Origin: Escherichia coli
GTDB taxonomy: Bacteria > Pseudomonadota > Gammaproteobacteria > Enterobacterales > Enterobacteriaceae
Direction: 5' to 3' (one strand)
Assembly: GCF_045037415.1 (NCBI RefSeq)
Contig: NZ_CP173438.1
Length of the DNA stretch: 64,000 bases
A program made the position numbers. Below, in pieces: positions 18,001 to 24,000 of the stretch. The number at the start of each line of letters is the position of its first letter. The first letter of the stretch is position 1.

Positions 18001-21000
18001 ACAGGTAATTGCATAATTAAATTTCCAGTGAGTGAATTGACAGGTGAGGGGTAAAACTTTCTCTCAGGTAATATATATCTGAAAATATTTTCAATAACAC
18101 CAGCCAGGAAAAACACCACCACAGGCGGTGGCGTTTCTTTGGGGCGTCTTTATTTAATCCGGGCCATCGCGTTTCTCAGTGCCAAATCTGCCTCTTCCGT
18201 TATCTCCAGACTTTTCTGCAACACCGTTTCTGACCGGGACAGTACCTGACGTGCTGCCAGCGGTTTCCGGATATGCTCCATCGTCAGCATCGTGTCTTCA
18301 TAGCCCTGCTGACGCCAGGCGTCGGTATGTGCCAACGTGAAACTGAGCAGACCGCCGCTGTTGTCACCATCACCTGCATATTTCAGCCTTTTCCGGGGAC
18401 GGATCTCAAGGATTGTGGTGACCGGAAAAGCCTGGCGATCCCATAAAGAACCGTCACTCAGATGCGTCACAATCACCATATTGCATCCGGCATCGACCAG
18501 AGGCGTCACAGGGGTATTTCCCTGCATATTTCGCCATCCTCCCATACCACCATCACCGAACATTGTCCCCTGAACCTCACGGGGACGGAACAGCAGGGGC
18601 AGCGCGGCTGACGCAAGCAGAGCCTCTTTCTGCTGTCCGCGGGGCAGGCTCTGGATATGCTGAAAAACGGCGTTTTTCGTGGTTCCGGCACCCAGTTCAG
18701 CACGAATGCAGTCAATAATATCCTGCATGCCCCCTTCTGTGGGGTACAGCGACACATACAGCGGTAGCCCGTCTGCCAGAGCATCAGTATCAAGATAATG
18801 ATCCAACAGCGCTGTCAGGGGCTCATCTGACAACAACGGCTGAGCCATCAGATTGTCAAACCCGTTGAGTATCGATATATGGCGAAGAAGCGTCGTAAGC
18901 AGTGCTCCTGCACGTCCGGGGATCTGGCAGAGGTTCATTGCCTGGAACAATTTTTTCAGCAATGAAAAGTAAACCAATCGGTTTACCGACAGCACCTGAT
19001 TATTCCCCAGATGATCCCAGAGCGCCTCCAGGCGTACGGCAGCTTCTGACAGATCGGGAGAGGCCGCGATAATGGCACCATTGAATGCGCCAATGCTGGC
19101 CCCTGAAACCATGCTGATCTGTGTACCACACTCTGCCAGTGCCTTAACCACTCCCGCCTGATAAGCGCCCACCGCCCCGCCACCGGACAGCACCAGCCCC
19201 GTTTTCATTTCTGTACTCATCCAGCCCCCTTCTGAAATATTTCATCGACCATACTTTCAGAGAGGCGTTCTGCAGAGCAGAGGCGAGGCATGCGAACCGG
19301 TAAGTGTTCTGCAGCCTGCGTGGTTGACCAGATCACCGGATGCTGCTCTTCACTGCACCAGTCTCCCAGCCAGTTAATCGCGTCATGCCACTCGTTATCT
19401 GCCTGCTCCCGGCCCTGACCACCAAGCCAGTCCAGAGTGTTCAGACGCACGGTTGCACTACCGCCACTCTCCTGTGCCATCTGCGTTAATGCTTTATGTC
19501 TGAGAATATCCAGTAGCTGGTTAACCTGGCCTGTTTCGCCCTGACGTATCACATCACCAAACGCGCCCCAGCGAAGCTCTTCAAGCGCCACATAACAACG
19601 TCCGGCAGGGGAAAATGACGCATATCGCCCGGCGCTCCACCATGAGAATATCTGCTCAAGATGTAACTGCGCCCGCTGAACCTGGTCAACACGGTGGAGT
19701 TTTTCTTCAAGATGATTCAGTTTATGGTGAACCTGATCGGCCAGGATGAGTAACTGCTCCCGTGTATCTGCGGAATAATGCGCCAGCCTGGCAGTATCAC
19801 TGACCAGTGAACTGACCCTGTCGTTTACCCGGGTAATCGCGTAGTTTGTGGTGGCAAGTGACGTTGTCAGCTCCGTCAGCCAGCGCAGGGACGCCTCAAG
19901 GCCCTGTGCAACCGAAGCATTGATGGCATTCTGCCGTGCAGCGCCTTCGCCGGTCAGTCCCTCTTTTAAACGCCGGAAGAACGTGCGCTCTCCGGCCGTG
20001 CGGATATGCTCCTGTGCAACATCGATTCCGTTTGCGAAATCAACCACAAATTTTTCAGGAAGACAGGTGAGTACCTGACATACCCGGTTATCAGCAATTT
20101 GTTGAATAAATGGTGAAGTCACAGCATTGTCTCCAGCTCTTCCCTCAGCGCCTTACTGTCAGTAATGAGCTCAGGAACCCTTTCATTTAATGCCTGAAGT
20201 CTCCTGGTAAGCCGTTCCTGTGCCTGCTGATCGCGTTTATGATCTTCAGAGCTCTGAATCAGCGTGTTACGCAGTTGTTCAACTTTCTCCCTGAATGCGC
20301 AGAAAAAGGCATCGATTTCCTGGCGGACGGGCTGGTTAATATCCTGCTCAATGGATGCCTGCAGCTCCCCGAAATATGCCCGGGTCAGTGACATAACTTC
20401 CTTCCTGACGGTGTTGATATTGATAACACTGCGGCTCACATCCTCTTTATAGGTTTCCCAGCCCCAGTCACTGGTGCCAAACGCTCCACAAATCTTTCCC
20501 CATAAACCACTCTGCCGACGGCGACGGGTGACGGTCTCCGTTCTTTCCTCCATAAGCGCACTCAGATTTGTTTTTACCGCGAGCCGGGTTTGTAACTGAC
20601 TGACTGCCGGAAAACTGATTTTTACGGTAAAGCCCTCATCCTCCAGGCGGGTATTGATGCGACCGGCAATGTTTTCTGTGGCGTACAGGGCCGTGCCACG
20701 AAAACCTGTTTCAATCCCGCTGACGATTTTCTCCAGCTCAGGCCGGAACTGTGCTTCAGCCTCACGGTGCAGGCTGGTCACGGTCGATTCGATTTGCGTC
20801 ATCAGTTCAAGGGCTTCCCTGCGATCACTGAATTTTATTTCGGGGCTGTCGGGATCAAAGTCCCGCATCCTGTCATGCTGATTTCCGGTTCCGAAAATAT
20901 CGAGAAAGAAAGCGAATGCGTTTCTCTCCCGGGGCTGCGCTGAATTTTCTTCCTCCAGCATTTGCTGTTCTTTGCGTTTACCGCTTCTGAAATAGTCATT

Positions 21001-24000
21001 CAGCTCCTCTTCCAGTGAGGTGCAGACCCCCGTCAGTAATTCCCGGGTTCTGGCATCGATCTCCTCCATGGCCATTCTGACATCAGCGGTCACCTGCTCC
21101 TGACAGTCTGCTATTTCCCGGATATCCTCAAGCAGGCTGGTGATATGCGCCTGCAGTGACTGAATACTTTGCATCAGCCCCTGATGGCGTAACGACAGGT
21201 ATTCACTGATATTTTCTGCATTCTGCATCAGTTTTGCGGCGGCAGAATCAACCGCCAGTGCCGCAGCTCTGGAGTGTGAACTCAGTATGACTTCCGTTAT
21301 CAGTTGATCGATAAGTGAGCCTTCCCACAGGTCTGTCGCCCCTTCAGTTGCCAGTTCGCTGTCTTTACAGACGTAATCTTTTTTCATGCGACCGAAGGCT
21401 TCCCTGACAAAATCATCGACCCAGGCTTCATCAACAGGAAGGGTTCCGTTTTTCCGTAACTCATGAAGCGCACGGTTAGCCAGGTATGCCTGGCGTGAGG
21501 ATCCGGGATAAACGCGGGAGGCGGGCAGCACATCGCTGTTCAGCATTGCCGGTACCTTCTGACAGACTGCATCAGCCCCATCGCCATTACGGTCTTTTTC
21601 ATCAAATTTATTGACCAGCACAAACAGGCGGCCGACAGACACATCAGCAATGGCATTAAGCTCTTTACGAACCTCCTCATCGGCTTTCGAGTTCATCTGG
21701 GTGTAGTCCATCACCGCCAGCACCGCAGAGGCTTTCTGCAGTTGATCCCGCATCATCACTTCCATCTGCGGTTGTCCGGCTTCATTAGGGCCGGGGGTAT
21801 CCAGCAGTGTGAGTGTTCCCTGGCATTCATCCATCCCCACCAGATGGCTGAATTCCACGTCGATCACCGGCAGTTTCTGCACTTCTGCGTATTCATCAAA
21901 AGGAAATTCACTCCCCATTGCCGCAGCAAGACGAACCAGATCGTTTAACGATGCCAGTCCGGTAAAGATTTCCTCCTCCCCGTGGTATTCATTTTTGAGC
22001 CAGCCATCATCCGTCAGAATATCCAGCAGTTCGCGGGTATCCCCGGTTTGCTGCAGGGTCTGTGCGACCTGCTGTCCTGCCGGGGTGGCGAGTTTTTCCT
22101 GCAGTGTGATTAATAAATTGCGGACAGGCTGAATATGTTCCAGATGGAGAACCGGCTCAGTTTTTCCGGGAACGTGGCGGATGAGCGTCGGTACAGAGGT
22201 CATGGGGCGGTTACGGTTAGGCAGAATTTCCTGCCCCACAATGGCGTTGATGGTGGTTGATTTACCTGCTTTCATCGTGCCGACAACAGCCAGCACCATC
22301 TCCCTGCGGGCGGTTTTGATTTGTTCGCCCTCCAGCTCCTCAATTCTTTTCAGTGCTTTCTGTTTATCAAAAAGCAGTCTTTTTTCGTTCTTACTGTCAG
22401 ATAACACATCTGGCTCCTCAACCATTTGCCGGAGCAGATTAATGTTCAGTTGCAAAAGTCGGTCGGCTTCATCACAAAGCAGGGCGATGTTCTTTTCGTG
22501 CATTATTTAACCTTCCTGAGACGCATTTTCATGACAACCACGGAGGAGGTCATTTACCACAAACGATCGTTTATAACGATCGATATGATAGTAACGATCG
22601 ATGTATTCTATTAACTTGAAAAACACAACGCAAGGGGACACCCCGGGTATGGCTGCGTTTGCATAGTGTTTTCATGGAGTTAAAAATCTGTAACAACAGC
22701 CTGGTACATCACCACCGGGTTCAGAAGAAAATCCAGTTCCATACCGCGCGGGCAACAGAAACCACCGAGTCACGGACGGCGCGCAGAACCGTGCGTGCAA
22801 CAGAGGCAATGCAGACACTCTCCGCCGTGTCAAATATCCGGTCCACCGCACCGGTAAACTGTTCACGGGTCTGAGTGCGGACAGACTCCGTGCGCAGTTC
22901 GTCCTGCAGGCGTGTCATCAGAGGGATGGCGGCATGTCCGGGAAGCACTGTCATGAGTGCACTGACCGGGGTGACCTCCCCCTGAAACAGTGCATTACAG
23001 AGTGAGGATTTACCGGCCCCGCTTTTACCCATAATGCCAGGCACGGGTTCGTGACGGGTGAGTTTGCGCAGATGTTCCAGGATGTGACGGGAAATCGGGT
23101 AAGGCAGGGAGGAGAGCGGTTTTTCAATTGCCTCAATGGCATCAGACGGATTCATACATGTATTCCCAGTGAAAAAAGACAAAACCCCGTGCACCGGAAA
23201 GGTGGCGGGGGATTCACGGAGATAATATCTTTCTGAAATTATTTTGAATGCAGGTATATGTGGCTGATTTGTATCAGCTAATGAGTACAGGTCTGAATCT
23301 AATCTGACAGTCCGCTTTGTGCCAAAGGCGGACGCTCAAGTAGATACTGTCCTGACAGTATGCGGTAATCAGAGTTGTTATATATTACTTGCGTCCAAAC
23401 CAGCTTTCTGACAACCCGGCCGCTCCTGCTTTCAACAACGCGCCGCCATACTTTTATGCTGCAAAGAGCGGAGACAGAAGGTTAGCGTAATTTGTAAATA
23501 ACTTACATTCACGTGTGATCTGGATCATAATTTTGCCTATGCACCGATCGTAATATAAATATTTACATAACGATCAGTGATTCATGAAAACTCAAATAAC
23601 TTTCGCTGCGCTTTTGCCAGCATTAGCGTCTTTCATACCGCTTCATGCTCATGCCTCGTCTACTTCTGAAGATGAAATGATTGTCACGGGCAACACCGCC
23701 GCCGACACCACCGATTCTGCCGCCGGTGCCGGTTTCAAAACGAACGATATAGATGTCGGCCCGCTGGGAACGAAATCCTGGATCGAAACACCATATTCCA
23801 GCACCACTGTTACTAAAGAGATGATTGAAAATCAGCAGGCGCAAAGCGTCAGCGAGATGCTGAAATACTCTCCCAGTACGCAAATGCAGGCGCGCGGTGG
23901 AATGGATGTCGGGCGTCCGCAAAGTCGGGGGATGCAGGGCAGCGTGGTGGCCAACAGCCGTCTGGACGGGCTGAATATCGTTTCAACAACCGCGTTTCCG

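Follow-up and report, generated by a model that had tools for sequence, protein, structure and literature searches.

What do three overlapping genes for a dynamin-like GTPase, a YjcZ/RdcB-family protein and a patatin-like phospholipase do for the Escherichia coli that carries them? We examined the question in a stretch of 64,000 nucleotides from contig NZ_CP173438.1 (assembly GCF_045037415.1), referred to here as the window, in which the three genes (the trio) occupy a genomic island. The trio is a conserved, horizontally mobile module, and the window copy is intact. It is best described as an uncharacterised variant of the GTPase system represented by RdcA/RdcB of E. coli K-12, equipped with a lipase output, and not as a CrfC/RdcA equivalog, an Eleos system or CBASS. 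We estimate a probability of about one half that it is an anti-phage or anti-mobile-element system, in which the GTPase gates a membrane-targeted phospholipase that aborts infection.

The operon and its products

22503..20119, minus strand: gene 1, GTPase, 794 residues, ATG start
20122..19217, minus strand: gene 2, YjcZ/RdcB family, 301 residues, GTG start
19220..18150, minus strand: gene 3, patatin, 356 residues, ATG start
22561..22614, minus strand: promoter-like site, sigma-70-like, with -35 TTAATA at 22614 and -10 TATCAT ending at 22585
about 18130-18105, minus strand: intrinsic terminator, stem CACCGCC-TGT-GGTGGTG followed by TTTTT

The trio is a translationally coupled operon. The open reading frames (ORFs) and the two 4-nucleotide stop/start overlaps (GTGA at 20122-20119 between genes 1 and 2, ATGA at 19220-19217 between genes 2 and 3) are read from the DNA, in agreement with a first, sequence-only reading of the window; a separate Shine-Dalgarno sequence also stands ahead of each of the three start codons. 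The GTPase motifs (G1/G3/G4) and patatin motifs (GGGxxG, GxSxG, DGG) cited in that reading are likewise all present. With the promoter-like site upstream and the terminator downstream, which lies 20 nucleotides past the patatin stop codon, the operon is bracketed as a unit. Three 11-nucleotide direct repeats, TAACGATCGAT on the plus strand (22561-22571, 22574-22584 and 22592-22602), overlap the promoter-like site, and each contains the palindrome CGATCG. These repeats are kept in five of six Escherichia alleles linked to a YeeP-like gene and were not found in the cah-linked copy of E. coli O157, the plasmid copy or other genera; they are a probable operator, apparently lineage-specific. No structured RNA or tRNA was found near the operon.

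Protein 1 is a member of the dynamin superfamily by its motifs and by its stalk and overall structure. Pfam identifies Dynamin_N (E = 2.3e-17). The nucleotide-binding elements are G1 (GTMKAGKS, residue 75), G2 (T102), G3 (DTPG, 235) and G4 (NKFD, 298), and residues G75, K81, S82, T102, D235-G238, N298, K299 and D301 do not vary among 37 homologues. The AlphaFold model, with a predicted local distance difference test score (pLDDT) of 77, features a G domain (residues ~68-350), a stalk, a stalk-tip loop and a β-hairpin; its long helices span residues 399-507, 561-622 and 696-793. The best 50 Foldseek matches all belong to the dynamin superfamily and include BDLP (the top match, E = 8e-13 over ~850 aligned columns), SynDLP, IniA, mitofusins, Cj-DLP1/2 and dynamin, which bears out the dynamin-like identity first proposed for this protein. 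The template modelling scores of these matches are 0.2-0.3, at sequence identities of 12-16%, so the domain arrangement either differs from that of the solved dynamins or is uncertain. The GTPase is predicted to be soluble, with neither a transmembrane segment nor a signal peptide.

The second product had been recorded as a helical protein. It is indeed predicted to be all-helical and soluble (model pTM, the predicted template modelling score, of 0.82), with neither a transmembrane segment nor a signal peptide, but that description missed the family: the protein is a full-length YjcZ/RdcB homolog (Pfam YjcZ, PF13990, E = 2.5e-71, residues 26-296 aligned to profile positions 1-272 of 272). A profile search of the PDB returned nothing beyond chance and no specific solved relative, and the structural neighbors in AFDB50 are YjcZ-family entries only. 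Among 1.84 billion proteins, this small family accounts for 482 representatives at 50% identity. A phage origin of the module was considered and rejected, because YjcZ-like sequence is missing from all 50,697 phage records searched.

The third protein is a patatin, as first stated. Pfam Patatin (PF01734) matches with E = 7.3e-25, and the catalytic set comprises the oxyanion motif GGGAVG (13-18), GASIG (40-44) with the nucleophile S42, and DGG (223-225) with D223. Residues G13-15, G18, S42, D223 and G224 are invariant in the patatins of 28 cassettes. Neither a signal peptide nor a transmembrane segment is predicted; the enzyme is thus predicted to be cytoplasmic, with its catalytic set intact. 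PlpD, VipD and ExoU are the nearest solved proteins by PDB sequence matching. The likeness to secreted toxins covers no more than the initial ~70 residues of the catalytic core, and the C-terminal helical extension (residues ~300-356) is cassette-specific. Identities as RssA and CapV were rejected on NCBIfam scores under the respective cut-offs, and VpdC on a score of 20 bits against a cut-off of 1000. Patatins are commonly inactive until a cofactor binds, as with CapV and cyclic GMP-AMP, ExoU and ubiquitin, or Legionella VipD and the GTPase Rab5. The trio patatin resembles CapV, ExoU and VipD in being a cytoplasmic Ser-Asp enzyme, and a similar latency until activation is presumed.

Kinship with RdcA/RdcB, distribution and allelic variation

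The GTPase shares 34% identity with K-12 RdcA (YjdA/CrfC) over 765 residues, and the gene 2 protein 31% with RdcB (YjcZ) over 281. Homology is full-length in both cases, which places two-thirds of the module in a characterised E. coli GTPase signalling pair. The K-12 proteins are also both soluble, and rdcA and rdcB show the same arrangement of a GTPase gene followed by a YjcZ-family gene, with the same 4-nucleotide overlap. RefSeq names the trio products 'dynamin family protein', 'diguanylate cyclase regulator RdcB family protein' and 'patatin-like phospholipase family protein'. The NCBIfam CrfC model (NF007368) aligns to residues 1-793 of the GTPase over profile positions 1-736 of 742 and yields 549.9 bits, which is under the equivalog cut-off of 1146 bits; the protein is therefore a paralog of RdcA/CrfC and no ortholog.

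The diguanylate cyclase DgcE is activated by RdcA and RdcB, a GTPase and its partner (PMC6510439). RdcA is a soluble signalling GTPase that interacts with RdcB and docks on DgcE at the MASE1 domain, which is embedded in the membrane (PMC6510439). It needs GTP hydrolysis, the T103D variant being inactive, and K82A is functional, so the nucleotide-free form is active and GTP is inhibitory (PMC6510439). The switch residues K82 and T103 correspond to the invariant K81 and T102 of the trio GTPase. Three features set the trio apart from the K-12 pair: it has a third, strictly linked patatin gene; its GTPase carries a polybasic and hydrophobic insertion at the stalk tip; and, unlike the core rdcA/rdcB genes, it is mobile, patchy and found far outside the Enterobacteriaceae. 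In the alignment, QLALPW of K-12 RdcA, which we take to resemble a beta-clamp-binding motif, stands opposite KRLLFD of the window GTPase, so this segment is not conserved.

The segments of gene 1 that code for the stalk tip and the hairpin are as follows.

20824..20961, minus strand: stalk-tip loop, GTPase residues ~515-560
20407..20541, minus strand: β-hairpin, GTPase residues ~655-699, TRRRRQSGLWGKICGAFGTSDWGWETYKE

The stalk-tip insertion is found in all 25 trio GTPases compared and is reduced in all RdcA-type proteins, with a mean length of 43.8 residues in the trios versus 13.2 in 12 RdcA-type proteins, a net charge of +1.3 versus -0.9, and 9.5 versus 3.5 hydrophobic residues. In the window protein, a polybasic run is followed by the hydrophobic patch NAFAFFLDIFG and a conserved DFDP; the loop is modeled with a pLDDT below 50. 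The membrane paddle of BDLP is located at the same place, the tip of the stalk. The hairpin TRRRRQSGLWGKICGAFGTSDWGWETYKE is basic and Trp-rich, with predicted strands at residues 652-663 and 682-695, and its W680, G681 and Y685 are nearly invariant among homologues. The basic and Trp residues of the pattern TRRRRxSGxWGxxCxWFxTxDWGWExY are kept in the trios and partly lost in the two-gene type represented by RdcAB. Together, the tip loop and the Trp-rich hairpin hint that trio GTPases may bind, or be targeted to, membranes.

The module is widespread. At least 80% of a 4.6-kb query was matched in 2442 of 5426 complete E. coli genomes (~45%), with up to five copies per genome, and gene order and tight junctions are constant in 30 loci from ~20 genera of Gamma- and Betaproteobacteria; this is far beyond chance, and the co-occurrence survey thereby extends the trio far beyond the strain in which it was first noticed. 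The first junction is a 4-nucleotide overlap in 21 of 29 trio loci, and gaps are at most 17 nucleotides long. Pseudomonas, Vibrio, Pectobacterium and Plesiomonas have the same order with overlapping junctions, and encode dynamins of 794-810, YjcZ proteins of 288-305 and patatins of 352-358 residues. Many genera have patatin homologues with 45-65% identity. Divergence across cassettes is congruent among the three proteins, and ratios of non-synonymous to synonymous substitution rates (dN/dS) against E. albertii are 0.25 for the GTPase, 0.11 for YjcZ and 0.41 for the patatin. Copies interrupted by insertion sequence (IS) elements are present in many genomes, and there are clusters of truncated patatins as well.

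Around the 30 loci, nothing is constant beyond the three genes themselves; the neighborhoods otherwise contain integrases, IS elements and plasmid genes. The YjcZ gene was found on 44 plasmids, with 25 of the 44 matches in the 60-80% identity band; a trio variant of ~62% identity resides on Klebsiella, Enterobacter and E. coli plasmids. On the conjugative IncFII plasmid NZ_CP147596.1 of K. pneumoniae (locus L088), the trio lies at 6773-10991 between IS1 and ISCfr4 (IS30-family). Its GTPase is annotated with 743 residues and may therefore be 5'-truncated by IS1.

We note three further observations on these loci. A small acidic MsyB-like protein is encoded directly 3' of the patatin gene in Pseudomonas, Pantoea and Erwinia (L003 9090-9428; L041 10004-10828; L011; L021); it could act as an inhibitor or represent a fourth component restricted to certain lineages. 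In Pseudomonas, Pectobacterium, E. albertii and Serratia, YeeP-like GTPase, RadC/JAB, CbtA/CbeA and DUF4942 genes lie near the trio (L003 9915-10889; L006 1-268; L009 4341-5390; L018), a recurrence which suggests that the CP4-type island backbone is itself common across genera. Finally, a contig assigned to 'Syntrophomonadaceae', from a Firmicutes metagenome-assembled genome, has the same ORF lengths and hidden Markov model (HMM) scores as a contig of a gammaproteobacterial metagenome-assembled genome from the same sediment series (L024, L026); the Firmicutes occurrence is thus probably a binning artefact.

A scan with a YjcZ-family alignment, limited to one genome per species and followed by HMM classification, yielded 79 loci. 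Trios account for 26 of them and occur in Gammaproteobacteria (Escherichia albertii, Pantoea, Erwinia, Budvicia, Serratia, Pseudomonas, Thiodictyon, Allochromatium and Marinospirillum) and Betaproteobacteria (Macromonas, Aquaspirillum, Comamonadaceae, Paenacidovorax, Gallionella and Yanghanlia). The remaining 53 are of the two-gene RdcAB type, all in Enterobacteriaceae. The same patatin gene follows each of the four most divergent full-length YjcZ members examined. A tree based on the GTPase and YjcZ sequences in concatenation, midpoint-rooted without an outgroup, unites the patatin-less type in one Enterobacteriaceae clade (100/100 bootstraps) and places this clade with the trios of Budvicia and Serratia, apart from the remaining trios (100/100 bootstraps). 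The restriction of the pair to one family, together with its lower divergence, suggests that RdcAB descends from a trio that lost its lipase. K-12 RdcAB would then be a chromosomal derivative of the trio, minus the lipase and the membrane-binding loop.

Variation among Escherichia alleles is concentrated in the GTPase. Alleles from E. coli and E. albertii vary at 17.5% of GTPase columns, 4.3% of YjcZ columns and 14.3% of patatin columns; the YjcZ partner is nearly invariant among E. coli alleles. GTPase differences cluster at residues 361-400, 521-560 and 641-680, and 26 of the 74 that separate it from the E. albertii protein fall within the stalk-tip loop. E. coli alleles feature two discrete tip-loop types and at least four hairpin variants, which assort independently. 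Compared with the rest of the protein, the hot-spots have an eightfold higher dN (0.171 vs 0.021) and a dN/dS of 0.51 vs 0.14. The pattern is that of a mosaic of old alleles, with constraint either relaxed or diversifying; positive selection is unproven.

The case for defence and its competitors

The preferred reading, a defence system that aborts infection, draws on the conservation of the module as one unit, genomic context, the membrane-type motifs of the GTPase, the RdcA switch, the precedent of cofactor-gated patatins and allelic variation. Regulators of the HTH-WYL-WCX (helix-turn-helix) or BrxR type adjoin 10 of the 30 trio loci, and several loci carry defence genes within 8 kb, among them BREX BrxL/PglZ, BrxC (1385 bits), a type III restriction-modification system and a gene resembling those of defence-associated reverse transcriptases (DRT). 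A mad3-like gene lies near one trio and DndB near another. E. coli MP1 has two trio copies, near EcoKI and Druantia (PMC12922286). In the same transcriptomic study (2026), the trio is up-regulated in lysogens and termed a "putative dynamin phage defense system" (PMC12922286). The hypervariable patches of the GTPase would fit the signature of an arms race and are counted for defence. We regard the trio as a credible but unproven defence candidate that has already been flagged once in the literature. The abortive-infection or membrane-attack role suggested at the outset is favored, not proven, by these contexts.

The mechanism we envisage would begin with three proteins made in fixed proportion from one transcript, as the gene arrangement predicts. 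By homology to RdcA/RdcB, the GTPase and the YjcZ-like protein would form a complex, which the nucleotide switch, the tip loop and the Trp-rich hairpin may bring to the inner membrane. In one nucleotide state, this complex would license the patatin to hydrolyse membrane phospholipids; in the RdcA model, it is the nucleotide-free form that is active, and GTP is inhibitory. The trigger would likely be phage infection, sensed as a fall in GTP, a perturbation of the membrane or a phage factor acting on the hypervariable surfaces, and the infection would probably be aborted through damage to the membrane.

Several results weigh against a defensive role. The literature searched contains no functional study of the trio and no phage-protection data for it. 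PADLOC (2023) has no model for the trio and returns sub-threshold, partial matches only. The annotation of neighboring genes was selective, covering ~30 large ORFs, and carries no background correction; immediately adjacent to the window copy there is no canonical defence system. Up-regulation in lysogens fits non-defence roles too, and some of the read counts were multi-mapped (PMC12922286). The dN/dS of the hot-spots, at 0.51, is below 1. Lastly, no effector swapping was found among the 30 loci and the four most divergent YjcZ loci, which counts against defence because genuine modular defence systems commonly exchange their effectors.

Comparison with named systems places the trio outside each of them. 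The PADLOC partial matches (LeoBC at the P-loop, ZorA, mad8 and the N-terminus of a CBASS phospholipase) were rejected as sub-threshold. Eleos ('Dynamins', LeoA/LeoBC) and LeoABC of enterotoxigenic E. coli resemble the trio in having island-borne dynamin-like GTPases, and are linked to phage defence or vesiculation. Eleos is found in defence hotspots, and the 'Dynamins' of the Pseudomonas and jumbo-phage papers are the same system (PMC12629846, PMC12595487). Unlike Eleos, the trio has no LeoA homologue, and its match to LeoBC is partial (E = 3.1e-5, residues 29-89, around the P-loop); Eleos for its part has neither a YjcZ partner nor a lipase. Membership in Eleos was therefore rejected. With CBASS, the trio shares a patatin as operon output, as in CapV, and the PADLOC model for the CBASS phospholipase effector matches residues 9-70 of the patatin with E = 9.5e-5. 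CBASS was nevertheless rejected: the NCBIfam model CBASS_lipase (NF041079) yields 18.3 bits where its cut-off is 200, and no CD-NTase or other cyclic-nucleotide machinery was found in the window neighborhood or at the 30 trio loci. The initial statement that the combination matches no named system thus holds for PADLOC and the literature searched, with the qualification that the combination had been flagged once before (PMC12922286) and that RefSeq names the individual products.

A bolder form of the defence reading, which we advance only tentatively, is that the trio represents a new immune class. Here a dynamin-like GTPase, in place of a nucleotide cyclase or a STAND NTPase, would act as both sensor and switch, respond to GTP depletion, membrane stress or a phage factor bound to its shuffled hypervariable patches, and license a patatin at the inner membrane. 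RdcA/RdcB, the master biofilm regulators of Enterobacteriaceae, would be a domesticated descendant, stripped of lipase and membrane loop and rewired to a diguanylate cyclase.

Rather than killing the cell, the trio might maintain or remodel its membrane, by sealing and fusion in the manner of DynA or by vesiculation in the manner of LeoABC; lysophospholipids released by the patatin would change curvature, and any phage protection would come through delayed lysis instead of abortive infection. We consider this unlikely. The membership of the GTPase in the dynamin superfamily and its paddle-like tip loop agree with it, as does the strict one-effector architecture, which fits a dedicated enzymatic partnership. 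DynA of Bacillus subtilis and BDLP of Nostoc belong to the same superfamily, and BDLP is the top structural match. DynA is reported to cluster at membranes upon exposure to phage or pore-forming agents, which requires membrane binding, and to confer phage protection that likewise depends on such binding (PMC12998192); the lysogen study also favors a DynA-like, population-level role (PMC12922286). Unlike DynA and BDLP, however, the trio GTPase is single-headed, comes with an obligate YjcZ partner and a lipase, shares 12-16% identity and is only a candidate for membrane binding. RdcA, the nearest relative that has been characterised, works as a soluble signalling GTPase and does not remodel membranes, and a patchy island or plasmid module with hypervariable surfaces would be unusual for housekeeping repair. 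The WYL regulators and defence neighbors point to conflict, although they do not separate abortive from protective action.

A signalling role parallel to that of RdcA/RdcB is, in our judgment, improbable. In that case the proteins would dock on the MASE1 domain of DgcE or of another cyclase and tune cyclic di-GMP, biofilm and motility, with the patatin as an accessory that supplies a lipid signal or a local membrane change. DgcE is encoded by an E. coli core gene, so that trio carriers have it. The full-length homology, the conservation of K81 and T102 and the established function of RdcAB (PMC6510439) also speak for such a role. It is harder to reconcile with the range of the trio, which spans numerous Beta- and Gammaproteobacteria while pairs of the RdcAB type were found in Enterobacteriaceae only, and with its presence on plasmids and islands without any cyclase gene. 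Identity to RdcA/RdcB is moreover only ~30%, with a score under the NCBIfam CrfC cut-off, and the invariance of the lipase catalytic residues argues for lipid hydrolysis as the output.

Slightly less probable still is an addiction or stabilisation module, in which the GTPase pair restrains a latent patatin toxin for the benefit of an island or plasmid. Conjugative plasmids of the IncFII type and islands of the tRNA or CP4 type do carry the trio, with cbtA/cbeA toxin-antitoxin genes as neighbors, and the effector gene comes last in an operon whose genes are tightly coupled. Three large proteins encoded over 4.4 kb, though, make it far more complex than known addiction modules; many copies are interrupted by IS elements without obvious lethality, and nothing suggests differential protein stability. 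An exported lipase directed at hosts or other bacteria, with the GTPase pair as chaperone or secretion aid, is very hard to credit, for although PlpD, VipD and ExoU are the nearest solved patatins and the cassette is frequent in extraintestinal pathogenic E. coli (ExPEC), Shiga toxin-producing E. coli and other pathogenic E. coli islands, the protein lacks both a signal peptide and an autotransporter domain, has no secretion system encoded next to it, resembles secreted toxins only within the short core region described above, and is encoded in free-living Gallionella, Allochromatium, Thiodictyon and Macromonas.

Genomic setting and significance

The window copy occupies the CP4-44 position beside tmaR-yeeA-sbmC. 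Core genes run in the order plaP, sbcB, dacD, sbmC, yeeA and tmaR, and are followed by the island genes: first yeeW, cbtA, cbeA, yeeT, JAB/RadC, antirestriction and DUF932 genes, then ISEc12 with the gene it splits, the trio and a YeeP-like remnant, and at the end a TonB-dependent receptor, an ABC transporter and more cargo up to cobU. The elements that flank the trio are the following.

22721-23194, minus strand: YeeP-like GTPase gene, island backbone, outside the module; ORF of 157 residues with an internal deletion
17601..18122, minus strand: secreted-protein gene, 5' half, with signal peptide MKRLHTLMLFLAVLFTG; the 3' half lies at 14751-15101
15184-17486: ISEc12, IS21 family, splitting the secreted-protein gene 3' of the trio

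These flanks, a decayed YeeP-like GTPase gene upstream and an IS21-disrupted gene downstream in a CP4-type island, are as the sequence-only reading had them. The YeeP-like ORF is 95% and 90% identical to residues 49-124 and 267-349, respectively, of an intact 349-residue E. albertii protein, and residues ~125-266 are missing. In other E. coli islands, a YeeP-like GTPase gene precedes the trio with a constant 217-nucleotide spacer, and an intact version of the split gene, encoding 227 residues, lies directly 3' of the trio (L094, L095, L098). This downstream gene is not conserved outside Escherichia; it may be part of the 'five-gene cluster' induced in Kapi1 lysogens. We make no claim that it encodes an Ivy lysozyme inhibitor, the Pfam match being weak (E = 0.069).

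The window sequence is identical to that of strains of the ST131 (sequence type 131) type such as 4/1-1. Strain 4/1-1 (L001 14502-19387) differs from the window in having two tandem ISEc12 copies in place of a single one; apart from this, identity is 100% across 25 kb. In E. coli O157 AR-0428 (L096 41-7354), the trio directly follows cah, the gene for a calcium-binding, Ag43/flu-like autotransporter, in place of a YeeP-like gene, and the upstream region is a different one that lacks the CGATCG repeats. The trio thus sits beside flu-type genes and is no strict alternative to them. The initial suggestion that it fills the slot where K-12 carries flu holds as to position, with this qualification.

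Elsewhere in the window, overlapping genes for a PAPS-reductase-like protein (429 residues) and a ParB/IbrB-like protein (214 residues) form an IbrA/IbrB-type pair at 57035-58953 on the plus strand. The pair lies in a low-GC patch (0.31-0.47) and is named in the RefSeq annotation of strain 4/1-1; its NCBIfam matches are weak. Rfam small RNA matches on the plus strand, STnc240 and STnc490, are located at 1583-1657 and 3246-3369, respectively, with STnc490 just upstream of an IS200C transposase gene.

New in this analysis are the grouping of the patatin-less pair as one Enterobacteriaceae clade, the stalk-tip insertion exclusive to trios and the shuffled hypervariable segments. Close to half of the complete E. 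coli genomes carry the cassette, with ST131, O157 and O104:H4 backgrounds among them, and so do plasmids of Klebsiella and Enterobacter. If it is a defence system, a dynamin-gated lipase would add to the known logics of effector activation and would be relevant to phage therapy of ExPEC. The YjcZ/RdcB family gains a context as well, being coupled to a patatin in every examined locus outside one Enterobacteriaceae clade. This coupling suggests both the ancestry of RdcA/RdcB and their type of target, an enzyme acting at the membrane. A GTPase pair of biofilm signalling is thereby linked to a probable ancestry in conflict systems, and the mechanism of RdcA becomes testable from a new angle, for instance through the loss of its tip loop or an exchanged output.

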